The notes: generated from the sequence alone by a model not told the origin. A stretch of DNA of 20,000 bases from an uncultured virus (IMG/VR IMGVR_UViG_3300048580_000371) (IMGVR_UViG_3300048580_000371); one strand, 5' to 3'. Positions 2,675-19,994 are shown, counted from the first letter of the stretch. Translations and numbers: made by a program.

Positions 2675-2694
2675 AGGATTACTCCTCTATTTTC
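2667..2694. terminator. Probable bidirectional terminator between convergent genes
   Basis: Perfect 12-bp inverted repeat GAAAATAGAGGA-ttac-TCCTCTATTTTC overlapping both stop codons. Confidence 0.65.
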
Positions 2695-3791
2695 AATATT
2701 CCCCTCTTATTTAATTCCTTGGCATAATATAATTTTTCTGGAAACCCTTTTGGTTTTTTAGGTGGATAAATTAATTCTGTTGGAACTGTATTAGATATTA
2801 TCCAAATATCAAATAATTGAACTAATAATTTTTCATTTTGTCGTCTAATGAGTTGTTTCTTTTTCATATTATTTTTTCGTTCATCTGATAATTTAATCCC
2901 AAGATGTGATTTTGACATTTTTTGTCTACGTTCTAATGGAACTGGGACACCATACGAAGGACTGTTTTCACCTGAAAATATTTCTGATAATTTTTTCTTT
3001 GTTTCTTCACTATGATGATGACCATAATGAGCAGCCAATTCACCTGTTTTTCCATAATTAGGGTTTTTTTCACCAGAAACTCTTTCTGATTGTTTTCGTT
3101 TAGTCTCATCAGAGTGTTTATATCCAAATAATGGATTATTTTCACCGGATCGTAACATTGACAATAGTTGTTTTGTTTCTTCTGAATGTTTAAAACCAAA
3201 CAGAGGATGTGCCTCACCTGTAACCCCAAACATTGGATGATTTTCACCTGAAAATATTTCTGATAATTTTTTCTTTGTTTCTTCACTATGATGTTGACCA
3301 TAATGAGCAGCCAATTCACCTGTTTTTCCATACCAATAAGCATTTTCACCTGAATTAGCTTTGTTATATTCAATTTTTATATTTTCAAATACAGAGGCTG
3401 TTATTTTATCAAATCGCTCTGTTCTTGAGCCATTAATAAAGGACCAAAGTGCCACCGTCATCATATTTTTAAATTTTTTATTATTAATCATTTTAACTAA
3501 TAAATGGTGAACAACAAAATGTTCTTTGGCTGACAAAAATACCAAATTATTTTTATCATTATTTCCACCAAACGAACTTGGGAGTATGTGATGATTTTCA
3601 ACATATCCCAATTTTTCCTTGGCTATTTTTCTATTTTTAAAATTTCTTATTTGTGCTTTTTTAATTATCCCTATATACCACTTGGCGTATTTTGATTTAT
3701 TGGACATTTTCCAAATTATATCTAAATAATCAATGTTGTTATCTGTTATAACATTATTTGTGCTTTGATAAATTATTAGATCATTATTCAT
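2679..3791 (-). CDS. Free-standing HNH homing endonuclease with NUMOD3 repeats
   Basis: ENHHILPSSFGGNNDKNNLVFLSAKEHFVVHHLL HNH motif; repeated HSEETKKKLS NUMOD3 motifs; start placed at 3791 by SD AAGGAG and alignment with the other two cassette copies. Confidence 0.9.
   Translation of the reverse strand: MNNDLIIYQSTNNVITDNNIDYLDIIWKMSNKSKYAKWYIGIIKKAQIRNFKNRKIAKEKLGYVENHHILPSSFGGNNDKNNLVFLSAKEHFVVHHLLVKMINNKKFKNMMTVALWSFINGSRTERFDKITASVFENIKIEYNKANSGENAYWYGKTGELAAHYGQHHSEETKKKLSEIFSGENHPMFGVTGEAHPLFGFKHSEETKQLLSMLRSGENNPLFGYKHSDETKRKQSERVSGEKNPNYGKTGELAAHYGHHHSEETKKKLSEIFSGENSPSYGVPVPLERRQKMSKSHLGIKLSDERKNNMKKKQLIRRQNEKLLVQLFDIWIISNTVPTELIYPPKKPKGFPEKLYYAKELNKRGILKIEE
2965..3332. repeat. 92-bp direct repeat inside the HNH gene (2965-3056 and 3241-3332)
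   Basis: One mismatch; 276-nt offset; encodes YGKTGELAAHYG(Q/H)HHSEETKKKLSEIFSGEN twice. Confidence 0.9.
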
Positions 3792-3970
3792 TTTGACATT
3801 TCTCCTTGGTTGTTGTATAAATAACATTGTAGCGGAAAGAGGCATCCTCCTTGGTGTCTGTTGATGGATACGCTAATATTCATCAACCCGCTATAATGTT
3901 ATTTATCTTTTTCTTTAAAATTTGTGTAATTTATTTTCATAAATATTGATTTTTCTTTCTCCATTGTTGT
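3789..3970. repeat. Endonuclease-associated intergenic cassette, copy 1
   Basis: Highly similar to 8500-8647 and 11049-11229: CATTTTGACATTTCTCCTTGG...TATAAATAACATTGTAGCGGAAAGAGG...CCGCTA. Confidence 0.95.
3824..3916 (+). ncRNA. Putative structured small RNA (three-way junction, CUCCUU loop), copy 1
   Basis: TATAAATA at 3816-3823; P1 3830-35/3888-93, P2 3840-46/3853-59, P3 3860-70/3877-87; U-rich tail; copy differences keep pairing through G-U only on the + strand. Confidence 0.6.
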
Positions 3971-3975
3971 AGTAT
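3946..3975 (+). promoter_or_regulatory. Putative sigma70-type promoter for polB fragment A
   Basis: TTGATT-18nt-TAGTAT; SD GGAG before ATG 4003. Confidence 0.5.
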
Positions 3976-4002
3976 TGGTTAATAACAGATGGAGATAAAA
4001 AT

Positions 4003-5700
4003 ATGTATGTTGACGCAATTAAAGATAATGATACTATTTTGTTAGTAGAACGAGTTGATGAAGAACGGGTTTATAGAGAATTCCCTGTTGAATATTATTT
4101 TTATATTGAAAATCCCAAAGGGAAATATACAACCATTTTTGGGACCAAGGCAGAAAAAATTACATCTGCTAATGGAAAAAAATTTAGAGGTGATTTGGCT
4201 ATATATGATAACGAACGAAAATTCGAATCCGACATCAACCCAATATTCAAGTGCCTTGAAAAACATTATCGTGATTGCGAAAACCCAAAATTAAATGTGT
4301 GTTTTTTCGACATCGAAACAGATTTTGACCCGCAGCGCGGTTTTTCGAGTCCCGACGATCCTTTTGCACCCATTACAGCTATAACATGCTATCTCAATTG
4401 GGCAGACCAATTGATAACATTAGTATTACCACCACCAACTGTTTCAATGGATTTTGCCCAAAAAACTTGTACTGAATTTGAAAATACTTTTGTGTGTGAT
4501 TCAGAAGAACAACTTTTAGAAACGTTTTATGATGTAATTGAAGATGCAGATATTCTTTCAGGTTGGAACTCTGGATTTTATGATATTCCATATATCATCA
4601 GACGAACTGAAAAAATCCTTAATAAAGAACTCACAAGAAAGTTGTGTCTTTGGAATAAATTACCACTCAAAAAAGAAGTAGAACGTGGATGGGGAAAATC
4701 AACAACATTTGATCTTGTTGGAAGAGTCCATCTCGACTATCTTGATATCTATAAAAAACATACTTATTCAGAACAACCAAGTTATAAATTGGATTCAATT
4801 GGGTTTGTTGAAGTAGGCGAAACCAAAACCCAATATGAAGGGTCGTTGGATGATTTATATAAAAAGGACTTCAAGAAATTTATTGAATATAACAGGCAGG
4901 ACGTTATGCTCTTGGTAAAGATTGATAGAAAGTTAAAATTCATGGAATTGTCAAATCAGTTAGCCCACCAAAATAGTGTGACGCTAAAAACTACTTTAGG
5001 TTCTGTTGCCCTTATTGAACAGTCCATTGTGAATGAATCCCATGACCGTGGTATGGTTATGGCAGATCAAAAAACCAAAGAAGAGAATGATAAGCATTCA
5101 CTTATCATTTATGATAAAGCAGAACAGGAATACAAGAAATCAGTTGCAGGAGCTTACGTGGCAGAGCCTCAAGTTGGATTATCCCATTGGATAGGCAGCA
5201 TTGACATTAACTCTCTTTATCCATCTGTTATTAGAAGTCTAAACATGGGTCCAGAAACCATCGTTGCCCAAATTAGACAAGATGCTACCAAAAAATGCAT
5301 CACAGATAGATTTGAAGATCAACAAGGACCAGGACCGAAATATAAACAGGCAAGCATGGCAGACTGCTGGAACGGATTGTTTGGATGTTTGGAATATGAA
5401 GAAGTTATGAAGAAATCAGATAAAGAACTTATTCTTGATATGGAAAATGGCGATACTGTCACCATGAAAGCATGGGAAATTTACAATTTTATCTTTGAAC
5501 AAAATAATTCATATTGTCTATCAGCCAATGGAACCATATTCAGAACTGACGTTGAAGGAATTATTCCAGGTCTATTGCGCCGGTGGTATGATGAACGTGT
5601 TGAAATGAAAAACAAAGCCAAGGTGGCTGGGCAAAAAGCATCTGGGGTGGAGGTTAAAGATTCTTCATTGTTGGAACAATTAAAAATGTTGACTTCTTAA
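4003..5700 (+). CDS. polB: Family B DNA polymerase, N-terminal fragment A (3'-5' exonuclease, palm motif A, first fingers helix)
   Basis: ExoI FFDIETD, ExoII GWNSGFYDIPY, ExoIII YNRQDV, AGAYV, motif A DINSLYPSVI, SANG, GIIPGLLRRWYDER; ends before motif B. Confidence 0.95.
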   Translation: MYVDAIKDNDTILLVERVDEERVYREFPVEYYFYIENPKGKYTTIFGTKAEKITSANGKKFRGDLAIYDNERKFESDINPIFKCLEKHYRDCENPKLNVCFFDIETDFDPQRGFSSPDDPFAPITAITCYLNWADQLITLVLPPPTVSMDFAQKTCTEFENTFVCDSEEQLLETFYDVIEDADILSGWNSGFYDIPYIIRRTEKILNKELTRKLCLWNKLPLKKEVERGWGKSTTFDLVGRVHLDYLDIYKKHTYSEQPSYKLDSIGFVEVGETKTQYEGSLDDLYKKDFKKFIEYNRQDVMLLVKIDRKLKFMELSNQLAHQNSVTLKTTLGSVALIEQSIVNESHDRGMVMADQKTKEENDKHSLIIYDKAEQEYKKSVAGAYVAEPQVGLSHWIGSIDINSLYPSVIRSLNMGPETIVAQIRQDATKKCITDRFEDQQGPGPKYKQASMADCWNGLFGCLEYEEVMKKSDKELILDMENGDTVTMKAWEIYNFIFEQNNSYCLSANGTIFRTDVEGIIPGLLRRWYDERVEMKNKAKVAGQKASGVEVKDSSLLEQLKMLTS

Positions 5701-7632: not shown

Positions 7633-8502
7633 TTAATCTATATATCGTAAATCTAAATTTTTATACTTGGCTCCCTTTCCAGTAGGTTTGTGTGTCCCTT
7701 CCAAAATATTTTTTATAACATTATAACCAATTTTTAATTCAGAAGTTATTTCTTTTAAGGTATTCCATGATTTCACACACACCCCATCAACAAATAATCC
7801 AGCTTTAAATTTGAATTTAAGTTTATTAATTTCATTCATATCTAATTGTTCAACTTTATAATATCTAACATAATGATCTTTTACAAGCCAATGTTGAAAT
7901 TTAGATGCAGCCAATGATAAATTGGTGTGTCCAGTATTAAGAAACACTGCAGCACGATGAATACTAACAAATTCTTTTATAAATTTACCATTTTTATCAT
8001 AAATGCTTGTTTGTATTCTTGTTGGTTGGACTTCTGGTGAAATTTCTGCCATTCTTTGTTTTTCTTCTGGTGTCCACTTATGCCAATTTCTTCCCTTACT
8101 GGCTTCACCTATTAATTTTTTAGCTTCATCTGTATGTGTTTTTCCAAACATTCCATTGTCTGCTCCTATTCTTGCTGGAGGTCTATTGGAAATTCTGGCT
8201 ATATTTGTTAATATTCCAGTGTTATCTACCCGAAGTCCATATTTATAAATAAGAGTTTCTTCAAAATCATATGCGTCATTTTCATCTATAAACCCTTCTT
8301 TAATGATTTGTTCAATAGGTTCCAACCCTTGATTTAATAAATGTTTGATATAATTATCTTTAAATGAATTGTTTGATGAATTACCTCTTTTAACATCTTT
8401 AACGTGGCGTTTTATTCTGTCATTTTTTCCCTTACCAATATAAAAAGGTAAATTTGTTGTTGGGTCTATTAAAGCGTATACATAAAAATTTGTGTCTTTC
8501 AT
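7633..8502 (-). CDS. Free-standing GIY-YIG homing endonuclease with NUMOD3/NUMOD1-like domains
   Basis: FYVYALIDPTTNLPFYIGKG, RIKRH, E..LI..YG, LTN; GKTHTDEAKKLIG. Confidence 0.9.
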   Translation of the reverse strand: MKDTNFYVYALIDPTTNLPFYIGKGKNDRIKRHVKDVKRGNSSNNSFKDNYIKHLLNQGLEPIEQIIKEGFIDENDAYDFEETLIYKYGLRVDNTGILTNIARISNRPPARIGADNGMFGKTHTDEAKKLIGEASKGRNWHKWTPEEKQRMAEISPEVQPTRIQTSIYDKNGKFIKEFVSIHRAAVFLNTGHTNLSLAASKFQHWLVKDHYVRYYKVEQLDMNEINKLKFKFKAGLFVDGVCVKSWNTLKEITSELKIGYNVIKNILEGTHKPTGKGAKYKNLDLRYID

Positions 8503-8647
8503 TTTGACATTTCTCCTTGGTCATTGTATAAATAACATTGTAGCGGAAAGAGGCATCCTCCTTGGTGTCTGTTGATGGATATTGGTAGTATCTATCGACC
8601 CGCTATATCTATTTAGCTTTTTCTTTCAAATTTGTGCAATTTATTTT
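8500..8647. repeat. Endonuclease-associated intergenic cassette, copy 2
   Basis: Highly similar to copies 1 and 3; begins exactly at the GIY-YIG start codon. Confidence 0.95.
8535..8627 (+). ncRNA. Putative structured small RNA, copy 2
   Basis: TATAAATA 8527-34; P1 8541-46/8600-05; P2 8551-57/8564-70 with loop CTCCTT; P3 8571-81/8589-99. Confidence 0.6.
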
Positions 8648-8673
8648 GACTTATGTGATGTATTTCATATAAT
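8646..8673 (+). promoter_or_regulatory. Putative sigma70-type promoter
   Basis: TTGACT-16nt-TATAAT upstream of the MBL gene. Confidence 0.5.
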
Positions 8674-8729: not shown

Positions 8730-9497
8730 ATGACATACAAATTAACATTTTTGGGATCTGGTTCTGCATTTACACCGCCTTGGGGAGATAACTATCAATC
8801 CAATATGGTTTTTCAATCACCATCAGGTAAGAAATTACTTATCGACTGTGGAACACAAGTTCATATGGGATTGCATGACCAAGGCTGGAGTATTTTTGAT
8901 ATTGATGCAGTTTATATCAGTCACCAACATTCTGACCATATTGGAGGGCTGGAAGAGACCGCCTTCAAAACATATTTTACCCCAAATCACCCAAAACCAA
9001 AAATGATCGCTTATGGGAGAATGTTGGATTTTCTTTGGAATGAAAGCCTTCGAGGTGGTCTTGCAAGCCTTCAAGGACAAATGGCAACGTTAGCTACTTA
9101 TTTTGATCTTGTACCAGTTGCCCGTAATAGTGGATTTGAATGGGAAGGCAATGAATTCAAATTAATCCGCACCATACACATAATGGATGGGTTTGATTTT
9201 GTCCCATCATATGGATTAATGTTTGACCTAAATGGTAAGAAGGTATATTTAACCACAGATGCCCAACATTGTCCACACCAAATCATGGACTTTTATAAAA
9301 TGGCAGATGTGATTTTCCAAGATTGCGAAACAACACCATTTAAATCTGGTGTCCATGCACACTATAGCGAATTAGTAACGTTGCCAGATGAAATTAAAAA
9401 TAAAATGTGGTTGTACCATTATCAACCTGGTGATTTACCTGATGCTATAAAGGATGGTTTCTTGGGATTTGTAAAGAAAGGACAAACATTCGAATGA
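8730..9497 (+). CDS. MBL-fold metallo-hydrolase, Apyc1-like (anti-Pycsar) cyclic nucleotide phosphodiesterase candidate
   Basis: SD AAGGAGG; LGSGSAF, LLIDCG, SHQHSDHIGGLEE, LWNESLRGGL, FQDC, GVHAHYSEL, LYHY. Confidence 0.8.
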   Translation: MTYKLTFLGSGSAFTPPWGDNYQSNMVFQSPSGKKLLIDCGTQVHMGLHDQGWSIFDIDAVYISHQHSDHIGGLEETAFKTYFTPNHPKPKMIAYGRMLDFLWNESLRGGLASLQGQMATLATYFDLVPVARNSGFEWEGNEFKLIRTIHIMDGFDFVPSYGLMFDLNGKKVYLTTDAQHCPHQIMDFYKMADVIFQDCETTPFKSGVHAHYSELVTLPDEIKNKMWLYHYQPGDLPDAIKDGFLGFVKKGQTFE

Positions 9498-10124: not shown

Positions 10125-11051
10125 TTAGGTTTGTTCTGTCTTTATAAAATTTTCATAACGAGTTTCGACCATTTCAATTGATATTTTCTTTTGTGTTTCA
10201 TTATCTACAAATATTAATTCAGGTATCCAATTTTTATTACTAATTCTTATAAAATTGTATCCTTGTTTCCAAGCACTATTTTGTTTGAGTCTGTCCCTTA
10301 CTATTTGTTGTTTTGATATTGTATGGAAATATTCACCATCAACTTCAACTAATAAATGTAAATCTGGTATATAAAAATCATATAACCATTGCCCTCTATT
10401 ATTAACATCATTCACTATAAATTGGTGTTCAAATATTATACCAAAATCATTTAAAAATTCTTTAAATAACAGTTCAATATCTGTATCTTTTTTCTTTGTT
10501 GGATTGTTTTTAATATAATTGCACATCGCTATTGATTGTTTTTCTCTGGCTTCTGGTGATGGTATTCTTCCTTTTGGGTGCATTAAATCTGGGAATAAAC
10601 GATTTAATTCTTTTAGTCTTGCCCCAGCTGCATCACGTTGTTCTTGGGTCTTGATAAAAAATCCCAAACCAGGTTGACATTTCCACCCGGCAGCGAATCT
10701 GCGTTGTATTTCACCAATCATAAAGACACGCATAAATTCTTTATGTTCTTCAGTATGGGAACCCCAAGATACTCCTGTTCTTATTTTTGAAAGTTTTTGT
10801 TTTGTTTCTTCAGAACGCTTTATCCCGGTAAGTGCATTGACTACTTTTTGTTTGTATTCATCATTGTGCATTGGATTATTTTCTCTAAAACCTTTTCCCA
10901 AATCATGAGCCAAAGATTCACACACTATTGGACTGTTTGGGTAGAGTTCTTTATATTTGTTAGTATCAATCCCATGTTTTTTTAGATGAGTTTTGGTTAT
11001 TCTTTTAAATTTACAGTTGCATATTTCGCAGGTTATTAAATCCATATTCAT
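10125..11051 (-). CDS. Free-standing Vsr/DUF559-like (EDxHD-type) endonuclease with N-terminal zinc finger and NUMOD3
   Basis: CEIC...THLKKH; RSEETKQKLS; DTDIE, YDFYIPDLHLLVEVDGEYFH, RDRLK, GYNFIRI. Confidence 0.85.
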   Translation of the reverse strand: MNMDLITCEICNCKFKRITKTHLKKHGIDTNKYKELYPNSPIVCESLAHDLGKGFRENNPMHNDEYKQKVVNALTGIKRSEETKQKLSKIRTGVSWGSHTEEHKEFMRVFMIGEIQRRFAAGWKCQPGLGFFIKTQEQRDAAGARLKELNRLFPDLMHPKGRIPSPEAREKQSIAMCNYIKNNPTKKKDTDIELLFKEFLNDFGIIFEHQFIVNDVNNRGQWLYDFYIPDLHLLVEVDGEYFHTISKQQIVRDRLKQNSAWKQGYNFIRISNKNWIPELIFVDNETQKKISIEMVETRYENFIKTEQT

Positions 11052-11229
11052 TTTGACATTTCTCCTTGGTTATTGTATAAATAACATTGTAGCGGAAAGA
11101 GGTATCCTCCTTGGTGCCTGTTGATGGATACTACTAATATCTATCAACCCGCTATACTTATTTATCTTTTTCTTTCAATTTCGTGTAATTTATTTTCATT
11201 AATATTGATTTTTCTTTCTTCATTGTTGT
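11049..11229. repeat. Endonuclease-associated intergenic cassette, copy 3
   Basis: Highly similar to copy 1 over about 180 bp, including the outward promoter. Confidence 0.95.
11084..11176 (+). ncRNA. Putative structured small RNA, copy 3
   Basis: TATAAATA 11076-83; P1 11090-95/11149-54; P2 11100-06/11113-19 with loop CTCCTT; P3 11120-30/11138-48. Confidence 0.6.
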
Positions 11230-11263: not shown

Positions 11264-13024
11264 ATGGCAGACTATAATCCAAAAGATTTAACCAAATTAA
11301 TCCAAGAAGGTGATGCTGGAAAGATAAAGGCATATATGGATGAATATGATTTGGTGTTATCTGGGAGTAAAATTGTCCCAAAATCTGATAAGGCAAAAGA
11401 GCATAAGGCTGAAGAAGCCTTTATGGATATGCGGCAGCACAGTCGTAAAATCTTGTTAAATTCGTAAATATTGCGACTTCATGCAGTGATGTATGTCGAA
11501 AAACCCCTTTAACTGCTGGAAACTCTGACCGTGAAAGACGAAGACAATCAGCAGCCAAGCCCTTGAAAAAGGGAAGGTTCAACGACCAGAGAGAAATCTC
11601 GTAGACCCAAGTGGGTCGAAATGGGGGGTATCCTGTAAATCAGGATAGTGATATGGTCTATTCTTTATGGAAACATAAAGCAGCGAAAGCGGGATAAGAG
11701 TAACGACCTTATTCGAATATCAAGTATATGGTGCCTAAAAATTGGGCCATTAATTAGTAATAATTAATTGAAAACCCCTTTAATTGCTGGAAACTCTGAC
11801 CGTGAAAGACGAAGACAATCAGCAGCCAAGCGAAAAGAAATTTTCGAAGGTTCAACGACTATGCGAAAGCAGTAGGTCCAAGTGGATCGAAATGGGGGGT
11901 ATCCTGAAATTTGTCAGGATAGTGATATAGTCTTTTCTTTATGGAAACATAAAGCTGCGAAAGCGGGATAAGAGTAACGACCTTATTTGAAAATTAAAGT
12001 GTTGAACGAAAATATGAGAAATTATGATCCAAGAATTGGCTCCAGCGTTACTATGACTGGAAGGTGTATCTCTCGTCATATGGCTGGTGTTGTGAATGAT
12101 ATTATCTGTGGTGTAAAGGATCATCGTGGGGAATCAATTATATATGGTGATTCTGTGCATGAACGAACAATAATCAATACTAATATGGGATTGTTTACTA
12201 TTGGGCAATTATATGATTATTGTAGTAATAAATGGGAAGAACGTGGAAAATATTTTAGTTCGGATGATACCATAAAGGTTTTATCATATAATCCTGAAAC
12301 AAAACAACCAGAATATTATCCAATCAATCATGTGATTAAACATTGGACAGAAAAAGAAATGTTTGAAATTCGTGATACAAGGAGAATAGAACCAAATGTT
12401 GCAAACACAAATTTTGTTATTGTGACTGCTGATCATTCATTAATGATTGAACGAAATGGTGATTTGGTAAAAATAAAACCAACTGATATATTACCAACAG
12501 ATGTTTTAATTGGTTTGGCTGATGATAATAAAGATGGACAACGTATAGTTTATAAAAGCACTTGTGAAATAAAATCATTGGGTATTGTGCCACAGAATGT
12601 TTATGATATATCAATTAAATCTGATGATAAAAGTAGGCATACGTTTTTTGGAAACAACATTTTATTAAAAAATACAGATTCTGTTAAATGGAATAGTAAA
12701 ATTGATACAAAAACAGGTGAAACATCAATTGAAAATTTATTTCAGACCTGTGAAAAGAAATGGGTTGATGGCGAGAAGGAATATGCTTGGTCTGATGTAA
12801 AGATTAAAGCATTTGATGGTAAGACCAAGAAAGCCAAATACATGCCTGTAAATTATATTTATCGTCATAAAGTATCAAAAGACCAATGGGTTATTAAAGC
12901 AGAAACAGGACAAGAAGTAATAACTACCGGTGACCACTCTATTATGGTTGAACGAAATAAAGAAATTATTGAAGTAAAACCAATTGAAATAAAACCTGAT
13001 GATTTATTGATAATAAATGGGTAA
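11264..13024 (+). CDS. polB: Family B DNA polymerase fragment B precursor: join(11264..11465,11725..11736,12000..13024), 412 aa including inteins
   Basis: Splicing restores motif B RQHSRKILLNSLYGALLNENMRNYDPRIGSSVTMTGR; removing intein 1 gives IIYGDTD (motif C). Confidence 0.92.
11466..11724 (+). ncRNA. Group I intron 1 (259 nt, no ORF)
   Basis: Exon ends in U with P1 TCGT/GCGA U-G pair; P AACTGCTGGAA, Q AATCAGCAG, R TCAACGACCA, S GATATGGTCT; terminal G 11724; splicing restores the frame. Confidence 0.92.
11737..11999 (+). ncRNA. Group I intron 2 (263 nt, no ORF)
   Basis: P1 GCCT/GGGC with U-G; P AATTGCTGGAA, Q AATCAGCAG, R TCAACGACTA, S GATATAGTCT; terminal G 11999; splicing restores the frame. 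Confidence 0.92.
12152..12673 (+). mobile_element. Cis mini-intein (174 aa) at YGD|TD
   Basis: Starts with Ser (SVHERT), block B VTADHSL, block F VYDISI, ends HTFFGNNILLKN with +1 Thr; no endonuclease domain. Confidence 0.9.
12680..13021 (+). mobile_element. N-terminal half of a split intein (114 aa) at YGDTD|
   Basis: Starts SVKWNSKI, block B TTGDHSI, ends IKPDDLLIING* with no block F/G; paralogous to intein 1. Confidence 0.85.
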
Positions 13025-13038
13025 TTTTTAAACAAATT

Positions 13039-13089
13039 GATAAATAATTTATGGTGATATATAGTGTCACCATAAATTATAGGTGGTGA
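13039..13089 (+). promoter_or_regulatory. Late-promoter-like GATAAATA plus hairpin adjacent to the endonuclease RBS
   Basis: 14-bp perfect inverted repeat 13044-13057/13067-13080, then AGGTGGTG and ATG 13091. Confidence 0.55.
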
Positions 13090-13090
13090 A

Positions 13091-14122
13091 ATGGTTGGAT
13101 TTAGAAAAGAAGAATTTTATATAAAAAAATTTGGTGAAGAAAAAGGCAAGGATGAATATCAACGAGTATTAATAGCTCGTGATAAAAGACAATCACGACT
13201 GGACACAGGTAGAGGGGTTGAATATAAAGTTTATACTGAAGAAGATGTTTTAAATGGTGATGCTATTAAATGTCAATGTTGTGGTTATATAACATCGAGA
13301 TTACAATGGACCCACTTTAAATATAAATGTATTATTAAAACGTCAGAAGAATATTTAGAAAAATATCCATTGGCATTAATAGTGGCACCAAATTTAAGCA
13401 AAAAAACATCAATGACTTTAGAAAATATGATTGAGCTTCATGGCGAAATAAATGGAAAAATTAAATGGGAACAATATTGTTTAAAGCAAGCAGAAACTAA
13501 TTCATTTGAATATAAAGCAGAAAAATATAATATATCAGAAGACGATTTTAAAAAATATAATAAATCAAGAGCTGTAACATTAGAAAATTTAATAAAAAAA
13601 CATGGGGAAGACGAAGGATTAAAAAAATGGAATGATTATTGTGATAGACAAAAATATACTTGTTCATTAGAATATTTTATTGAAGAATATGGGGAAGATG
13701 AAGGATTAAATCGTTATACTTATTGGCATGAAAAAAGAGTTTGTAATGGTAATGGTGGAATTTCTGACGCAGAAGAAATTGTATTTGATATATTAGATAA
13801 TTATATTGGGGAAAACGTTAGACAATTAGTTTTAAAACATGATACCATTGATAAACATTATAGATATGATTATGCCAATGTAGAAAAAAGAAAAATAATT
13901 GAATTTAATGGAACTTATTGGCACTGTGATCCAAGAAAATATGTTGAGGATTATATTCATACCAAAACAAAATTAACAGCTGGACAAATATGGGCGAGAG
14001 ATGAGGATAAAATTAATTGTGCCAAACGTCTTGGGTATGATATTATGATTATATGGGAAAAAGACTGGAATACAAATCAAGAAAAAATTATATCTGATGT
14101 TGTATCATGGTGGAATAGATAA
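13091..14122 (+). CDS. Free-standing Vsr-like (EDxHD-type) endonuclease with zinc finger and repeated YGE(D/E)EG-like units
   Basis: CQCCG...THFKYKC; repeats FGEEKG/HGEDEG/YGEDEG; SDAEE, YDY...IIEFNGTYWHCDP, RDEDK, GYDIMIIWEKDW. Confidence 0.85.
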   Translation: MVGFRKEEFYIKKFGEEKGKDEYQRVLIARDKRQSRLDTGRGVEYKVYTEEDVLNGDAIKCQCCGYITSRLQWTHFKYKCIIKTSEEYLEKYPLALIVAPNLSKKTSMTLENMIELHGEINGKIKWEQYCLKQAETNSFEYKAEKYNISEDDFKKYNKSRAVTLENLIKKHGEDEGLKKWNDYCDRQKYTCSLEYFIEEYGEDEGLNRYTYWHEKRVCNGNGGISDAEEIVFDILDNYIGENVRQLVLKHDTIDKHYRYDYANVEKRKIIEFNGTYWHCDPRKYVEDYIHTKTKLTAGQIWARDEDKINCAKRLGYDIMIIWEKDWNTNQEKIISDVVSWWNR

Positions 14123-14136
14123 TAAATGGGTGATTA

Positions 14137-14382
14137 ATGACCGCAATATGTTCTGACAACAATGATTATAGGAAGATAATAACCAATAAGGTTATAAGGG
14201 AAACACTTGATAAATTATTTAATTATTATGATTTAGGTCCAAATAATAGTATACAATCCATATTATCTTTTGTATTTTTACGGACAAGGACAAGACGAAA
14301 TCGCAACAAAGAATTAATATCACAATATAATTTGGTGTTAAAGATGACTTATCCGGATTTATATGATGGATTTAAATTATGA
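14137..14382 (+). CDS. Hypothetical protein
   Basis: 81 aa; ends DGFKL with ATGA coupling (possibly a degenerate motif). Confidence 0.6.
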   Translation: MTAICSDNNDYRKIITNKVIRETLDKLFNYYDLGPNNSIQSILSFVFLRTRTRRNRNKELISQYNLVLKMTYPDLYDGFKL

Positions 14383-14684
14383 GTAGGTGCTTTATTGATT
14401 GGGTGGGGAATGAACATTGGGAACGAGATTCTGACGATGATGGTCCACAATTAGTCAATCAACATTATTCCATGTGGTATAGGAATTATAAAATCCCACC
14501 TGCCCCACCTTCTGGGATTGCCCATAGAGAAAATGGACCAGCTATAATTTATAAAAATTGCAATTTAAAGAAGTTTTGTTTAGATGCTGAAGAATATACA
14601 TTAAAGGAATATATTGACGAATTAATCAAACGTGGTAAGATAAAATCTGAAGATGCATTGGTGTGTTATTTGAAATGGAGTTAG
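14379..14684 (+). CDS. Hypothetical protein with HRENGPA repeat unit and FKLxW-type end
   Basis: AHRENGPAIIY; ends EDALVCYLKWS. Confidence 0.75.
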   Translation: MSRCFIDWVGNEHWERDSDDDGPQLVNQHYSMWYRNYKIPPAPPSGIAHRENGPAIIYKNCNLKKFCLDAEEYTLKEYIDELIKRGKIKSEDALVCYLKWS

Positions 14685-14685
14685 A

Positions 14686-14976
14686 ATGGACAATGGAGTG
14701 AAATCATATCATGTAACTGGTGATTGGGAAGTATTTCGTGTCCCTGTGCCAAAATATATGGAGTGTGAAATATTATATGATGCGATATGGACATGGTGTG
14801 CTGATAAATTGGAAGGTCCATTTAAAGTATTCAATGTTTCTTATGGGTCATCAAAATCTTTTTATAAAAATGGTAAACCAAGCAAAACATTAGAAACACT
14901 TGCATATAGGGAATTAGTTCAGGTTGATATTCAAAGAAAATCAGATGCTATTTTGTTTAAATTAAAGTGGGGGTAA
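14686..14976 (+). CDS. FKLxW-family hypothetical protein
   Basis: IWTWCADK; ends RKSDAILFKLKWG. Confidence 0.8.
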   Translation: MDNGVKSYHVTGDWEVFRVPVPKYMECEILYDAIWTWCADKLEGPFKVFNVSYGSSKSFYKNGKPSKTLETLAYRELVQVDIQRKSDAILFKLKWG

Positions 14977-14978
14977 TA

Positions 14979-15305
14979 ATGTATTATGAAGTATGTTATC
15001 ATAGATTTGCAGGAAAAATAATTCAATCACCATATGAAAATGGTTATCAAATGTCCAGAGAAGAATTTTCTGTTGGTTGTCATTCTACCAATCCATACCA
15101 TTGGACGACAAATCGTTGGGTATTTGAACGTTTAATTTGGTGTAAGGAAAATAATTTAAAATTGGCTGGATTTGACACACAAGCTTATATTAAAAGTTAT
15201 GAAGGACACGAATATAAACCAATTAGAGGTTCATTAATTACTGTATTAGAATTTAGGTTCATTAGAAAATCAGATGCATTATTTTTCAAATTAAAGTGGA
15301 GTTGA
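14979..15305 (+). CDS. FKLxW-family hypothetical protein
   Basis: LIWCKEN; ends RKSDALFFKLKWS. Confidence 0.8.
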   Translation: MYYEVCYHRFAGKIIQSPYENGYQMSREEFSVGCHSTNPYHWTTNRWVFERLIWCKENNLKLAGFDTQAYIKSYEGHEYKPIRGSLITVLEFRFIRKSDALFFKLKWS

Positions 15306-15306
15306 C

Positions 15307-15858
15307 ATGAAATTAACATTGAGTGATGATTTAAGGGAAACACTAAAAACGTCAACGTCAGATATTCAATCTGGGGAAGGTAGTTTGTATTATTATTCTT
15401 CACAAATTTGTGATGCAAGAGAAATGTTAGTATATACTTATATTTGGATGACACTAAAAAAGTATTCATTTGATGATTTTAAAATAATGGTTCAAATGGA
15501 CCCATTTATCCCTATTCAAGATATTAGAAATAGTACTAAATATGTTGTTGTGTTTTTTAATGAAGAAAAATATTTATCATTTGTGGAAACAATAAAAATA
15601 ATTAACGTTGGGACAATGTTCCCTGTATTATCCAATATAGGAAATTGTATTCCTGTTGAATATCCATTAATGGATTACAGTAGTTTTTCCGGCATACCAT
15701 TTGCAGCTGGTGATTCTGAATTTCAAGTATCGCAACATATTATAGATATATTTTGTTGGATGGTAGAAAATTGTCAAGGGAAATATTATCGTTATGGTAA
15801 ATTTTTCTTTTTTGAAACATCAGAAGATGCAATGTTATTTAAATTGAAGTGGAGTTGA
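15307..15858 (+). CDS. FKLxW-family hypothetical protein (long form)
   Basis: FCWMVENCQGKY; ends FFFETSEDAMLFKLKWS. Confidence 0.8.
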   Translation: MKLTLSDDLRETLKTSTSDIQSGEGSLYYYSSQICDAREMLVYTYIWMTLKKYSFDDFKIMVQMDPFIPIQDIRNSTKYVVVFFNEEKYLSFVETIKIINVGTMFPVLSNIGNCIPVEYPLMDYSSFSGIPFAAGDSEFQVSQHIIDIFCWMVENCQGKYYRYGKFFFFETSEDAMLFKLKWS

Positions 15859-15860
15859 TA

Positions 15861-16247
15861 ATGGAAGAATTATTTTTTGAATATGGTGTGTTTTTTAAAG
15901 TCACAGATACAGGGCTTGCCCCAATGGAAGAAATAAAATCATTTAATGAATCATTTTATAATTTATGGAAATCAATTTATGATTGTAAAAATTATAAAAA
16001 TTATGGTGAAAAAGATTGGGAAGTGGTTTTAGTTGAAAACCATTATCAAAAATACTCCCAAAAGAAATGTTCGGTGTTTTGTATGGAAAAATGTACAGGT
16101 GGCTGGGCAACGAGAAATTATTATATCACAAATGGTTCAGATGATATTGATTGTGAAGAATTTAAAAAAACTTTTAAATCTGGCATTGCATATTATTTTG
16201 AAAAACCTGAAGATGCTATATTATTTAAATTATCAATGGAGGCTTGA
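15861..16247 (+). CDS. FKLxW-family hypothetical protein
   Basis: FCMEKCTGGW; ends YFEKPEDAILFKLSMEA. Confidence 0.8.
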   Translation: MEELFFEYGVFFKVTDTGLAPMEEIKSFNESFYNLWKSIYDCKNYKNYGEKDWEVVLVENHYQKYSQKKCSVFCMEKCTGGWATRNYYITNGSDDIDCEEFKKTFKSGIAYYFEKPEDAILFKLSMEA

Positions 16248-16248
16248 C

Positions 16249-16410
16249 TTGTTAAAATGGTTAAAAAGATTAATTGTTGGTTGCGACCATGATTTTGCTA
16301 TTATTAATAGCGTAGCAACAAGAAAAATTGGTGGTTATTTATATAATCAAGAACCAAAGAAAATTTTCTTTTGTAAGAAATGTGGTAAAAAGAAGGAGAC
16401 ATGGGGATAA
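16249..16410 (+). CDS. Small zinc-ribbon-like phage protein
   Basis: SD GGAGG 16238, TTG start; GCDH...CKKCG. Confidence 0.6.
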   Translation: MLKWLKRLIVGCDHDFAIINSVATRKIGGYLYNQEPKKIFFCKKCGKKKETWG

Positions 16411-16721
16411 TGTTAAGGATGCATGGACATGGTTTTCCTGTTTTAACACCAAACTTACCTGAAGGTTATATAGAAAATCCAGGTTGGTATGATGATAATG
16501 TTCTTGAATATACTTTTAGTGGAAATTGGACTGAGTTAACATTTCGCAATGAAGGCAGTTTCACTCTTTATTGGGATAAGTTTGAAGATGCTGAAAATTG
16601 GATTCAAAATAATATTCAAAATTGGCAAGAAAATGCTTGTTGGATTCGGATCAATGATTGTTCGTATTTTTATTTCAAACATTCCAGTGACGCCATGTTA
16701 TTTAAATTGAGGTGGTTATGA
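16410..16721 (+). CDS. FKLxW-family hypothetical protein
   Basis: ENWIQNN; ends FYFKHSSDAMLFKLRWL. Confidence 0.8.
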   Translation: MLRMHGHGFPVLTPNLPEGYIENPGWYDDNVLEYTFSGNWTELTFRNEGSFTLYWDKFEDAENWIQNNIQNWQENACWIRINDCSYFYFKHSSDAMLFKLRWL

Positions 16722-17011
16722 TTATTCATTCATCGCTTGGTGTTTATGATGAAGAAACAATAGATGAATATTTGTTTGATGATCAGGAACATTATCGTCA
16801 AACATTGTATTATTATTATCGTTTGGATAGAAATTTTGAATCAATAAAAATTAGACAATGGTTAGATGATAATAAAATTCCTTATGTAATAGGATGGACT
16901 AAAATTGAAAAGTTACCAAATCCAGGTGAACTTTACAAGTATTCAATTAGATGTTATTTGAAAATATTGCATAAAAAAGATTTCCTAATATGTAAATTGA
17001 GGTGGTTATGA
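16718..17011 (+). CDS. FKLxW-family hypothetical protein
   Basis: IRQWLDDN; ends KKDFLICKLRWL. Confidence 0.8.
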   Translation: MIIHSSLGVYDEETIDEYLFDDQEHYRQTLYYYYRLDRNFESIKIRQWLDDNKIPYVIGWTKIEKLPNPGELYKYSIRCYLKILHKKDFLICKLRWL

Positions 17012-17232
17012 CACATTTTAAAACAAATATAAATTGGATAGATAGATTATTACAAAATGGAGTTGTGGTTATTATATCTCAGTCCAATTATGAAAAAGCT
17101 TTTAATTGGGCAGGGAAAAACATTGAAAATTTTAAATGGTTAGCAATGAACACAATGACCAAAGTACCAAATTATCATTTTTATTTTGAAAATCCCAATG
17201 ATGCAATGATATTTAAATTGAAATGGAGATAA
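17008..17232 (+). CDS. FKLxW-family hypothetical protein
   Basis: FNWAGKN; ends FYFENPNDAMIFKLKWR. Confidence 0.8.
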   Translation: MTHFKTNINWIDRLLQNGVVVIISQSNYEKAFNWAGKNIENFKWLAMNTMTKVPNYHFYFENPNDAMIFKLKWR

Positions 17233-17233
17233 A

Positions 17234-17794
17234 ATGGAAGAAGAATGGGAAACAGAGCCTGATTTTAAAGAAGGAAAATATCTTGGTTACAGTTATAATA
17301 TTAAACGCCATCCAGAGATGAAGCATCTTTGTGGATATGTTGTCGTGCCAAAATCCCATATGTTATATAGGGATGAAAATGTGTGTGAACGTATTATTAA
17401 TTGTCATGGTGGGATTACCTATACAGGTATTGATACAGGGAAGTGGGCAATTGGATTTGACTGTGCCCATTCAGGGGACAAATCACCAAGTCTTGCACAT
17501 TTTTTAAAAAACAGCCCTTATGATAATCCTTATGATAGTGGTGTATATCGTAATATTGAATATGTTGAAAGAGAATGTTATGATATTATTGTACAATTAA
17601 AACAATTGTCTGGCTTTAAATATTATGATATGAGTGGTTATTCATCCAATGATGTTGATGATAAAATTCAGTGGTGCATGGAAAATTGTCGTGGGCAATG
17701 GAAATTTTTGGAAGATTTTTATAATATTATAGTTTTTAAAAACAAACAAGATTTTATGTTTTATCGTTTAAGATGGGGGGTTGGAAATGACTAA
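17234..17794 (+). CDS. Fusion of a CGYV/HGGITY/GFDCAH phage domain to an FKLxW domain
   Basis: HLCGYV, CHGGITY, IGFDCAH then IQWCMENCRGQW...QDFMFYRLRWG. Confidence 0.8.
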   Translation: MEEEWETEPDFKEGKYLGYSYNIKRHPEMKHLCGYVVVPKSHMLYRDENVCERIINCHGGITYTGIDTGKWAIGFDCAHSGDKSPSLAHFLKNSPYDNPYDSGVYRNIEYVERECYDIIVQLKQLSGFKYYDMSGYSSNDVDDKIQWCMENCRGQWKFLEDFYNIIVFKNKQDFMFYRLRWGVGND

Positions 17795-18044
17795 CACCAT
17801 ATTAATAGATTTTATCGATAAAAAATATGAATATGATAAATTTTGGTGGGCATTTTATGTAGATGGAGAAACTGGCTTACCATATTATGACCTTGACACC
17901 AGCTTATTAACTTGGTTGAAGAAAAAAGAAACAATTCATTATATATATTTGACTGCAGACAGGCACAGAAGTCATTTAAGCGGCGTTGAATTTCATTTTG
18001 ACAATAAAGAAGACATGTTATTATTTAAATTACAATGGTTATAG
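17787..18044 (+). CDS. FKLxW-family hypothetical protein
   Basis: LTWLKKK; ends FHFDNKEDMLLFKLQWL. Confidence 0.8.
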   Translation: MTNTILIDFIDKKYEYDKFWWAFYVDGETGLPYYDLDTSLLTWLKKKETIHYIYLTADRHRSHLSGVEFHFDNKEDMLLFKLQWL

Positions 18045-18052
18045 GAGAAAAT

Positions 18053-18283
18053 ATGAATAAGATATTATTAAATAATAATTGTTTTGACTATTCATTTCAA
18101 AATGGTTTTTCCATACACAATGAAGTATTTGAATGGTTAAAAGAAAATAACATCAAATATTTACAAATAACAGACTATATACCTGTTGAAAATAAACCAA
18201 ATTGTTGGGCAGGATTAATATGGTTAGGATTTCAAAACAGAAACGACGCAATGCGTTTTAAATTAAGGTGGGGTGGACAATGA
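18053..18283 (+). CDS. FKLxW-family hypothetical protein
   Basis: SD AGGAG; FEWLKEN; ends NDAMRFKLRWGGQ. Confidence 0.8.
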   Translation: MNKILLNNNCFDYSFQNGFSIHNEVFEWLKENNIKYLQITDYIPVENKPNCWAGLIWLGFQNRNDAMRFKLRWGGQ

Positions 18284-18702
18284 TTAAATATGTAGCTGGG
18301 TTTATTTTTTCGCCAGAACGAGATAGGGTTCTTCTTATTAGGAAAAATCGTCCTGATTTTCAGGCTGGAAAATTAAATGGTATTGGTGGTAAAGTTGAAC
18401 AAGATGAAACATATCTTCAAGCCATGATGCGTGAAACATATGAAGAATCTGGTTTGATAATACACGAATGGACAAATTTCGCAATATTAAATCATCAAAA
18501 CTATTGTATCCATTTTTATATGTCAATATCAGACTACTATTGTGATTTTTTTAATAAAACAGATGAAAAAATTGAAATACACATTGTTAATCAATTATCA
18601 ATTAGAAATGATTTAATGAATCATATTAGATGGTTGGTCCCACTATCTTTAAATACAGACATCAAATTTCCAATTGAATATACAGATATAGGGGTGAATT
18701 AA
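18280..18702 (+). CDS. Nudix (MutT-like) hydrolase
   Basis: Nudix box GGKVEQDETYLQAMMRETYEESGL. Confidence 0.92.
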   Translation: MIKYVAGFIFSPERDRVLLIRKNRPDFQAGKLNGIGGKVEQDETYLQAMMRETYEESGLIIHEWTNFAILNHQNYCIHFYMSISDYYCDFFNKTDEKIEIHIVNQLSIRNDLMNHIRWLVPLSLNTDIKFPIEYTDIGVN

Positions 18703-18711
18703 AACTGTAAA

Positions 18712-19053
18712 ATGGTTTGTAATTGTGAATTTTGTACTATTTTTAGGCGTGTTAAAGATAATCCATATCCTGCAGAAGGAGACATGAATAATTTGTCTTG
18801 GATAGAGGAATTAGAATTAGAAGATATGTTGAAAGCTTGGTATGTTAGAGTTTTTGTTGATGAATTAAAATTTAGAGAAAATGAAGATATGATTAATGAT
18901 TGGTTAGAAGATAATTGTAAGTGTGAATATGATATTCAAGATTTTATATCACAGAAAAACTGTGGAACCATGATAACATTTTTTTATAATAGGAATGATA
19001 ATGGTGAACAAGCTAAAAAAGATGCAGTGTTGTTTAAATTAAAGTGGGGTTAA
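18712..19053 (+). CDS. FKLxW-family hypothetical protein
   Basis: INDWLEDNCKCEY; ends KKDAVLFKLKWG. Confidence 0.8.
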   Translation: MVCNCEFCTIFRRVKDNPYPAEGDMNNLSWIEELELEDMLKAWYVRVFVDELKFRENEDMINDWLEDNCKCEYDIQDFISQKNCGTMITFFYNRNDNGEQAKKDAVLFKLKWG

Positions 19054-19054
19054 A

Positions 19055-19375
19055 ATGAAAGAGATTTTTATGTTTGGATATGCCAATAAATTATATCAAA
19101 AATATAATTACAAAGATTGTGTCACCGGTCAAAAATATCCCCAAGATAGAAAAATCGTTGGTGGAAAGAAATTCTTTTTACCATGGAAAAATACTTGGAA
19201 AGGTGGTTTTCAAATCAGAGATGGTTGTACAACAGAAACAACAAAATATGTTAAAGAATTAAAACAATATGCCAAACATCGTTGGGAATTGACTTGTGAT
19301 GAATATTATGATCGAGTATTGGTGAATTTTATGGACAACAGGGATTTATTATTTTTTAAATTGAGGTGGGGATGA
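19055..19375 (+). CDS. FKLxW-family hypothetical protein
   Basis: Ends NRDLLFFKLRWG. Confidence 0.8.
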   Translation: MKEIFMFGYANKLYQKYNYKDCVTGQKYPQDRKIVGGKKFFLPWKNTWKGGFQIRDGCTTETTKYVKELKQYAKHRWELTCDEYYDRVLVNFMDNRDLLFFKLRWG

Positions 19376-19644
19376 TTTCTTATACCTACAACGATTTTGT
19401 CAATAATACTACCTATTTTAGACCAGGTACTGTTGAGCGTATGCGTTGTTATATGTTATGCAAGGAGAGTGGCTGGTTCCCAGAAATTATTTTTGTATTT
19501 GGTGGAAAAGATTCGACCATTATAATAGCTGATATGATACAATGGTGCAAAGAAAATTGTAAAGGGAAATGGGCGTTTGAAAATTGGTATATTAAATTTG
19601 AAACATCCAATGATGGAATGTTATTTAAAATGAGATGGGGATAA
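19372..19644 (+). CDS. FKLxW-family hypothetical protein
   Basis: MIQWCKENCKGKW; ends SNDGMLFKMRWG. Confidence 0.8.
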   Translation: MISYTYNDFVNNTTYFRPGTVERMRCYMLCKESGWFPEIIFVFGGKDSTIIIADMIQWCKENCKGKWAFENWYIKFETSNDGMLFKMRWG

Positions 19645-19646
19645 AC

Positions 19647-19994
19647 GTGGCTATAAATTATAACACACTTAAAGCAAGCATTAATAATTCTAATACTATC
19701 CAGATTAGTAATTTTAAATATTCAATTGAACCAAAGGTTGAATTTTGTATAGAATATCAACAATGGCTTTACACGCTTGTTAATACAATGAATGAAAAAA
19801 TTAAAATTGATGATTGGATTAAAAATTATTTACAACCAAAAACAGTTATAATTTTGAAACAACATTCAGATATGGAGATATTAAAAAATTGGGCAACAGA
19901 ACATGCTAAAGGAAAATATTGTATTTATTCCACTAATATTGTAATATTTGAAGACAACCAAGATGCAATAATGGTAAAGTTAAAATGGAGTTAA
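19647..19994 (+). CDS. FKLxW-family hypothetical protein
   Basis: Probable GTG start; KNWATEHAKGKY; ends NQDAIMVKLKWS. Confidence 0.8.
   Translation: MAINYNTLKASINNSNTIQISNFKYSIEPKVEFCIEYQQWLYTLVNTMNEKIKIDDWIKNYLQPKTVIILKQHSDMEILKNWATEHAKGKYCIYSTNIVIFEDNQDAIMVKLKWS

Follow-up and report, generated by a model that had tools for sequence, protein, structure and literature searches.

Results

Three Unrelated Nuclease Genes Share One Upstream Cassette

The window analyzed here is a 20,000-nt stretch of DNA from an uncultured lake-water phage. It is AT-rich (about 30% GC), with a positive GC skew, and almost all of its genes are carried by the + strand; the minus strand carries three nuclease genes, N1, N2, and N3 (Table 1). 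All three match PHROG families named homing endonuclease, and their reading frames are unrelated to one another. A terminator-like hairpin follows the stop codon in two of them, N1 and N3. N1 also contains an internal direct repeat of 115 nt (2942-3056 and 3218-3332, 276 nt apart and 90% identical), which probably represents duplicated NUMOD3 units. The + strand genes include a split family B DNA polymerase. Part 1 (565 aa, 4003-5700), which is 43-47% identical to its counterparts in the jumbo phages Phosso, Atu_ph07, and PA5oct, ends at 5700, and part 2 (11264-13024) restarts at 11264; about 5.5 kb of other genes, two of the nuclease genes among them, separate the two parts.

Directly 5' of each minus-strand nuclease gene lies one copy of a cassette (c1, c2, and c3; repeat family D2). 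The original prediction had claimed such a repeat in three copies, and indeed these show 71-89% identity to the reference copy over 157 nt; aligned 230-nt stretches have a mean column identity of 85%. The cassette itself measures about 130 nt. In each copy, the common block starts exactly at the nuclease start codon. The + strand genes downstream, and the promoter-like sites of those genes, differ between cassettes. Because the block is common to unrelated nucleases and starts at their start codon, and because the downstream + strand genes differ, the cassette, judged by comparison of these sequences, is part of the nuclease unit.

Table 1. Coordinates of the nuclease genes, the cassettes, and the parts of each cassette
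Feature	Coordinates	Strand	Description
N1, homing-endonuclease gene	2679..3791	-	370 aa, five NUMOD3 motifs; Pfam NUMOD3, E 4.8e-43; PHROG 655 "homing endonuclease," E 6.9e-37
N1, own terminator-like hairpin	2694-2667	-	From terminator scan
N2, homing-endonuclease gene	7633..8502	-	289 aa; GIY-YIG, NUMOD1, NUMOD3; PHROG homing endonuclease match
N3, homing-endonuclease-like gene	10125..11051	-	308 aa; Ros/MucR-type zinc finger plus Vsr/MTES_1575-like nuclease domain
Cassette c1	3787-3943		Directly 5' of N1; common block 3789-3943; similarity to c3 continues to ~3985
c1 -35	3793-3798	+	TTGACA
c1 N1 SD complement	3802-3809	+	
c1 left box	3816-3823	+	TATAAATA
c1 P1	3828-3835/3888-3895	+	
c1 junction	3836-3839	+	AAAG
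c1 P2	3840-3846/3853-3859	+	Loop CUCCUU, 3847-3852
c1 P3	3860-3870/3877-3887	+	Variable loop, 3871-3876
c1 right box	3900-3907		TATTTATC; minus strand reads GATAAATA
c1 U-rich run	3907-3916	+	CTTTTTCTTT
Promoter-like site after c1	3946..3975	+	Second, separate site for downstream + gene; TTGATT-18-TAGTAT; twin in c3
Cassette c2	8498-8654		Directly 5' of N2; common block 8500-8654; R1 124 bits
c2 -35	8504-8509		
c2 SD complement	8513-8520		
c2 left box	8527-8534		TATAAATA
c2 P1	8539-8546/8600-8607	+	
c2 P2	8551-8570	+	Loop 8558-8563
c2 P3	8571-8599	+	
c2 right box	8610-8617		
Promoter-like site after c2	8646-8673	+	c2's own downstream site; TTGACT-16-TATAAT; best sigma-70-like match in window; precedes 8730 gene
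Cassette c3	11047-11203		Directly 5' of N3; common block 11049-11203; R1 130 bits; similarity to c1 continues to ~11245
c3 -35	11053-11058		
c3 SD complement	11062-11069		
c3 left box	11076-11083		TATAAATA
c3 P1	11088-11095/11149-11156	+	
c3 P2	11100-11119	+	Loop 11107-11112
c3 P3	11120-11148	+	
c3 right box	11159-11166		

The + Strand of the Cassette Folds into a Three-Way Junction

The + strand of c1 (3816-3916) folds with an energy of -42.3 kcal/mol, compared with -16.0 +/- 3.1 for 200 shuffled sequences (z -8.4; none of the 200 was as good). Its minimum free energy (MFE) structure is exactly the three-way junction of P1, P2, and P3 that had been claimed for this strand, and the same fold is found in all three copies. 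In the alignment, P2 and P3 are fully paired (100%) on the + strand of every copy. The repeat and its fold are real.

The pattern of differences between the copies was also informative. Five stem columns vary among c1-c3; each changes one side only, and all of the changes are transitions. As originally claimed, these differences preserve pairing on the + strand alone: all five columns remain paired there through G-U, whereas the minus strand acquires one or two mismatches per helix (in each copy, P2 pairs at 5 of 7 positions and P3 at 9-10 of 11). No transversion occurs in any of the 36 stem columns, which speaks for selection on pairing. Five of the seven P3 loop columns vary, and this loop also contains an indel; no differences occur in the P2 loop, at the AAAG junction, or in the P1 core. 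The copies c1-c3 are near-identical paralogs, and none of their pairs has changed on both sides.

The element had been proposed to be novel. As this would predict, no Rfam family reached its gathering score in the cassette, the Rfam matches of the window being two group I introns elsewhere. At E values up to 10, the best Rfam score for 3760-4010 was 17.9 bits, against a gathering score of 60. For lack of an Rfam match, we rejected a ribozyme or a known RNA family. A cassette-encoded small ORF was rejected as well: reading from the + strand ATG within P3 gives 10, 13, and 37 codons in the three copies, and an in-frame upstream ATG, at 3845, is present in c1 only.

A Homolog in Another Phage Preserves Pairing in a Re-Spelled Helix

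Relatives of the cassette were identified with R1, a covariance model built from c1, c2, and c3. The pattern TATAAATA..CCTCCTT..TATTTAT occurs at 94 loci in IMG/VR, of which one, L081, is a true homolog (R1 52.4 bits, E 3.6e-10); the next best locus scored 22.7 bits and matched in the outer stem only. L081 is the single R1 copy on a 16.7-kb IMG/VR contig. It lies 5' of a minus-strand gene that is unrelated to N1, N2, or N3, and whose product is a DUF7487 protein with weak matches to PHROG "homing endonuclease" families. Here too the neighbors are on the + strand, and one of them encodes a 5'-3' exonuclease. P3 of L081 is fully re-spelled yet perfectly paired, with five pairs changed on both sides. 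When L081 is added to the alignment, 95.7% of cells are paired, a value reached by 2 of 500 shuffles in a control that comprises four sequences and ignores their relatedness. L081 also keeps the CUCCUU loop with its closing G's, TATAAATA, the facing GATAAATA, and one U-G wobble in P2, which is invariant in all four sequences.

Other searches yielded no further homolog. Against cultured phages, blastn of 3700-4100 gave no match, and, with short queries, relaxing the E value to 10 brought up nothing but AT-rich chance matches over at most 30% of the query. Exact-pattern scans of IMG/VR for the cassette found no locus, and a 23-mer found two loci in metagenome contigs, both in GC-rich coding sequence unrelated to the cassette. 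The pattern TATAAATA..GGAAAG..CTCCTT occurred at 12 loci, none with an R1 match. ATCCTCCTTGGTGNCT occurred at 43 loci in IMG/VR, the sole R1 match being once more the L081 contig, and at 120 or more loci in genome contigs, with no R1 match at E below 0.5 among those listed. R1 found nothing in four related phage records, two of which are complete genomes of about 306-311 kb, and no relatives of the N2 and N3 proteins were found in IMG/VR.

These data bear on whether the conserved feature is RNA at all. The cassette might be a DNA-level module, a stretch of repeated homology resembling the promoter-early stem-loop (PeSL) units, for which the accessible text of PMC4122927 offers a precedent; such a module would let nuclease genes be swapped or moved by recombination and would carry only ordinary promoter and SD signals. 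It is true that unrelated ORFs stand behind one identical head. One contig from another lake sample (depth 2.8) links a right flank of the c1/c3 type to the left portion of c2 together with an N2-like gene, and contigs in all four runs from lake samples depart from the right flank at 11211 into other sequence. These departing and recombinant-looking contigs are thin evidence, but they suggest that the cassette may exist in additional copies or settings and may be a site of exchange; among short, shallow contigs from other lake samples, no variation was seen inside the c1 junction. Recombination at the cassette may, however, follow from its repetition rather than be its function, and homology alone does not account for the compensatory changes that re-spell P3 in L081, for the invariance of the loop, or for stems free of transversions. 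We therefore consider a purely DNA-level role very improbable.

Strand Preference and the Minus-Strand Alternative

The core is more stable on the + strand than on the minus strand in all four sequences, by 4.3-11.5 kcal/mol (-27.7 versus -22.9 kcal/mol in c1, -28.7 versus -17.2 in c2, -27.7 versus -23.4 in c3, and -27.3 versus -22.1 in L081). Approximately seven stem positions have G-U in some sequence and none has the mirror A-C; the two-sided sign test gives about 0.016, an estimate from four sequences. Because the GC skew of the window is positive, a C-to-T mutation bias on the + strand is possible, and this could contribute to, or mimic, the G-U asymmetry.

If the + strand bias were such a mutational artifact, the functional RNA might instead be the minus-strand leader of the nuclease mRNA, stabilizing the message or tuning its translation, with a decoy SD locked in an AAGGAGG/CCUCUUU hairpin. 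The scheme would then be that of the T4-family homing-endonuclease controls, a precedent found in the accessible parts of PMC3014915. The minus strand of the c1 region does fold well (-35.3 kcal/mol, z -6.05). Moreover, the order of box, structure, SD, and ATG recurs before a + strand nuclease-like gene at 13091, and in many GIY-YIG-type genes of IMG/VR, where 23 of 73 distinct pattern matches have an opposite-strand ORF of at least 100 aa. Against this reading stand the one or two minus-strand mismatches per helix in every copy and the lower stability of that strand in four of four sequences. The decoy hairpin of the window copies is also lost in L081, which has no such complement, whereas the + strand P2 is kept there. 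Finally, the minus-strand MFE structure leaves the nuclease SD and AUG region open; the probability that the SD is unpaired is 0.49-0.89 in short transcripts. In long transcripts it is 0.70 for c1, 0.61 for c2, and 0.60 for L081, falling to 0.04 in c3 only, whose SD then pairs with the complement of a neighboring gene's SD, outside the cassette. The 5' arm of the minus-strand outer stem holds GATAAATA (GCTAAATA in c2), and that stem does not hold the SD. Since the SD is open in cis, the T4 masking-hairpin scheme does not apply, and any control must come from elsewhere. A leader acting on the minus strand is thus, in our view, an unlikely explanation.

We also folded 23 other homing-endonuclease leaders. 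By MFE, 12 favor the opposite strand and 10 the gene strand; there is no strand bias, and we therefore make no general claim about homing-endonuclease leaders.

Other nuclease-like genes have leaders of comparable layout. Upstream of the + strand gene at 13091-14122 (PHROG 22677, with a weak match to MTES_1575) lie GATAAATA, a 12-bp hairpin without mismatches, and an SD (13039-13093); the order of these parts is that of the cassette, and their sequence is different. Nine IMG/VR loci (L026, L027, L035, L049, L072, L075, L077, L087, and L109) have products that start M..IY, GIY-YIG-like by reading, and share a leader in which an ATAAATA box is followed by a hairpin (inner GGGA...UCC stem, GYGA bulge), an SD, and an ATG, with no clear MFE strand bias.

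The P2 Loop Matches the Nuclease Translation Start

CTCCTTGG occurs six times in the window, compared with 0.23 expected. Every cassette accounts for two of these, one being the nuclease SD complement and the other the loop of P2. The exact complementarity that had been proposed between loop and SD holds, CUCCUUGG pairing with CCAAGGAG in all three copies (and at seven of eight positions in L081). The loop had further been described as a mimic of the 16S anti-SD, and C-CUCCUU-GG is indeed a copy of that sequence.

Of 40 genes, the nuclease genes have the starts that form the strongest duplexes with the P2 apex (-17.2 to -17.3 kcal/mol, ranks 1-3), followed by the genes at 8730 (-14.9 kcal/mol, rank 4), 6037 (-13.4), and 11264 (-13.2 kcal/mol, rank 6). 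The whole c1 core pairs with its own nuclease start at -25.7 kcal/mol; shuffled starts give -12.5 +/- 2.8, and none of 300 equals the real one. The L081 core gives -17.0, against -10.2 +/- 2.7 for shuffled starts (5 of 300 as good).

An internal duplication, present in both phages, underlies this match: the antisense sequence of the nuclease start region, together with the box, recurs in diverged form as the segment comprising P2 and the P3 arm. Pairing of the P2 loop and 5' stem arm with the original start region is therefore possible, through 8 + 5 bp in the window and 7 + 6 bp in L081. The predicted + strand RNA would have perfect antisense complementarity to some 64 nt of the nuclease leader, a stretch that does not include the SD.

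Promoter-like Signals and the 3' End

TATAAATA had been labeled a T4 late promoter. We do not retain this label: the window shows no enrichment of the motif (7 occurrences versus 5.1 expected), and there is no match to gp55, a T4 gp55 query having found nothing in five related records, two of them complete genomes, by single-sequence tblastn, which has low sensitivity. Instead, a sigma-70-like -35 element, TTGACA (TTGACT in L081), lies 17 bp before TATAAATA in all four sequences. For comparison, the promoters of PA5oct are reported, in the accessible text of PMC7318152, to contain TATAATA and TTGAC motifs. The conserved -35 lies within the spacer between the nuclease SD and ATG and is retained although the L081 spacer differs; the 17-bp spacer that follows it in c1 holds the N1 SD complement. 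TTGAC-N17-19-TATAA is found four times in the window, against 0.40 expected: once in each cassette and once at the separate promoter-like site ahead of the 8730 gene. Sigma-70-like matches overall are not enriched (139 versus 129 expected), and the cassette -10 reads TATAAA, without the conserved final T. By either the late-promoter or the sigma-70-like reading, a + strand start near 3828-3831 is plausible.

The minus-strand boxes that had been predicted to face TATAAATA are present in all three cassettes, in the positions claimed for them (Table 1). The right box, which reads GATAAATA on the minus strand, is the same in c1, c3, and L081, and is replaced by GCTAAATA in c2. We regard GATAAATA/GCTAAATA as a candidate promoter for the nuclease.

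The U-rich tail claimed for the + strand RNA exists, as CTTTTTCTTT, but not as part of a canonical terminator, because for an RNA starting after TATAAATA it begins 12 nt past P1. The terminator scan listed no terminator-like site after the cassette core. With the U-run so far from P1, and without a terminator-like site, the + strand RNA may represent the 5' portion of a longer mRNA from that strand. An outer stem formed from box to box does abut the U-run; it forms only in transcripts that start further upstream.

A longer + strand message raises the question of whether the structure serves the phage's own + strand genes, allowing transcription to restart after an oppositely oriented nuclease gene. 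The junction would then be a 5' stabilizer, a processing site, or, by means of the outer stem and U-run, a terminator or insulator against read-through, and the anti-SD loop would be incidental. All neighboring genes are on the + strand, and read-through RNA would form the outer stem with the U-run directly after it. In addition, the two polymerase parts have c1 and c3, respectively, upstream of them, and these cassettes have about 40 extra bases in common, including a promoter-like site; the genes after c2 and c3 have strong AAGGAGG SDs, hence their pairing with the loop at the energies given above. However, the common block begins at the nuclease start codon and includes the nuclease SD, not the start of the + strand gene, and a promoter-like site of its own, different in each case, precedes every + strand gene downstream of the cassette. 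In c1 the loop pairs weakly with the downstream SD (-7.5 kcal/mol with the polymerase gene start), and so it does, judging from the sequence of that SD alone (AAGAGGTGA), in L081. Service to the + strand genes would also leave unexplained the invariant 8-nt match to the nuclease SD in three of three copies and the 7-nt match in L081. We consider that such a role is improbable.

Discussion

Homing endonucleases are potentially toxic passengers in phage genomes, and, to our knowledge, a hairpin that hides the ribosome binding site (RBS) is the only well-studied way in which they are kept quiet. Our analysis leads us to favor, tentatively and with slightly less than even confidence, a two-faced portable cassette: the nuclease would be expressed from the minus strand and restrained by an antisense, anti-SD RNA made from the + strand. 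The minus strand would supply a translation start (CCAAGGAG-N9-ATG), a leader, and probably a weak promoter, GATAAATA. On the + strand, TTGACA-17-TATAAATA, which overlaps the nuclease translation start, would initiate an RNA at about 3828-3831, and this RNA would fold into the three-way junction, with the P2 loop exposing its copy of the 16S anti-SD. Being antisense to the leader and able to reach the true SD, it would block ribosome binding. The duplex between the RNA and the nuclease leader would trigger cleavage, to which convergent-transcription interference would be added, and the combined effects would keep a potentially toxic nuclease at a low level. The firing of either promoter, the + strand RNA as a separate molecule, and the repression itself are what we infer from sequence. 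The antitoxin-like function that had originally been proposed for the element is thus kept in part: the fold favors the + strand, the loop matches the nuclease SD, and a promoter-like site precedes P1, whereas the identification of that site as a T4 late promoter is lost.

A more ambitious form of this antisense model is doubtful, although it deserves mention. In it, the cassette would contain a small-RNA gene that travels with homing endonucleases, born by tandem duplication of the nuclease start, and that silences all copies in trans. Since a nuclease gene acquiring the cassette also acquires a common SD region, a single RNA could silence every copy. Silencing across copies, like general SD binding by the + strand RNA, is something that we infer only; if true, the RNA would serve as an "antitoxin" common to an entire guild of selfish nucleases that are unrelated to one another.

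The proposed cis-antisense arrangement has parallels among type I toxin-antitoxin systems. In hok/sok and the par locus of pAD1, toxic genes are under cis-encoded antisense control, and in par the antisense match is made through repeated sequence, not by direct overlap of the SD. The cassette has the same face-to-face promoter-like sites, overlapping 5' ends, and exposed loop matching a translation start, and, as in par, its predicted RNA matches the SD via repeated sequence. In all three copies that RNA is complementary to the translation initiation region of its target, as expected of cis-antisense control. Unlike type I systems, however, the cassette has as its putative targets homing endonucleases from four unrelated families rather than small membrane toxins; it is portable between ORFs and without a terminator-like site, and its RNA is a prediction.

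Among phage systems, a first comparison is with the RBS-sequestering hairpins of the T4 family, which contain an embedded late promoter and are described for I-TevI, I-TevII, I-TevIII, segB, and Aeh1 mobE in the accessible parts of a T4 review (PMC3014915). Like these, the cassette is a structured element with a promoter-like box, directly before a homing-endonuclease SD, and presumably limits the expression of a harmful nuclease. It differs in that its SD and start codon are unpaired in cis in short transcripts (the SD of the long c3 transcript excepted), and in that the fold fits the opposite strand, the SD complement sitting in a hairpin loop of the predicted opposite-strand RNA. In the same parts of that review, no small trans-acting regulatory RNA is said to have been characterized from T4 (PMC3014915).

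A second comparison is with CfrI of cyanophage S-PM2, an antisense RNA of about 225 nt to a homing-endonuclease gene and psbA (PMC2984593). Our search of the literature on antisense or small RNAs tied to homing endonucleases returned only CfrI and reviews. Both CfrI, which belongs to a T4-like phage, and the predicted RNA of the cassette are antisense RNAs tied to a homing-endonuclease gene. As set apart by the available description, CfrI is longer and spans a gene junction, and the anti-SD loop and multi-copy cassette do not appear in that part of the account (PMC2984593). Compared with the published systems, as far as these sources are available, the cassette would be a new variant of cis-antisense control, for which CfrI and the T4 hairpins are the nearest precedents (PMC2984593, PMC3014915).

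PeSLs are mobile regulatory cassettes of T4-like phages, composite terminator/promoter units located among co-oriented genes (PMC4122927, accessible text). The cassette resembles them in being a small repeated unit of promoter plus stem-loop that joins unrelated genes and may be a recombination point. By comparison with the same partial description, it differs in carrying a translation start, facing two ways, having a branched fold with an anti-SD loop, and being tied to nucleases. The order of parts also differs, with promoter then structure in the cassette and terminator then promoter in PeSL (PMC4122927).

If the antisense model is true, it represents a different solution to the restraint of nucleases, one that can move between unrelated nuclease genes, and it shows how an anti-SD antisense RNA can arise from a duplicated translation start. 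If, on the other hand, the fold serves only the neighboring phage genes, the cassette is an ordinary promoter-and-leader repeat. In practical terms, it offers metatranscriptome searches and reporter tests a target that is small and concrete.

Other Features of the Window

Several other features of the window were apparent during this analysis. Part 2 of the polymerase gene begins with an exon that aligns with residues 553-588 of a 946-aa relative. It contains two tandem group I introns (11437-11680 and 11726-11954; Rfam RF00028, 89 and 98 bits), which have 45 nt between them and adjoin an ...ILLNS motif; the two introns are almost duplicates (93-98% identity; repeat families D13 and D16). The post-intron ORF (11987-13024) aligns with the relative up to ...IIYGDS and then continues into an intein (Pfam Intein_splicing, E 5.6e-12). 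This is therefore one gene with a split, two introns, and an intein. The gene at 8730-9497 encodes a metallo-beta-lactamase-fold protein with a Pfam match to Anti-Pycsar Apyc1 (E 3.5e-28), which makes it a candidate counter-defense gene whose product would degrade cyclic nucleotides. Finally, 164-2000 and 14137-19994 contain an array of about a dozen small + strand ORFs with the common end motif ...GATGCAATGTTATTTAAATTGAAATGG... (repeat families D1-D8). The end of each overlaps the SD and start of the next gene, and the array looks like a paralogous small-gene family with coupled translation.
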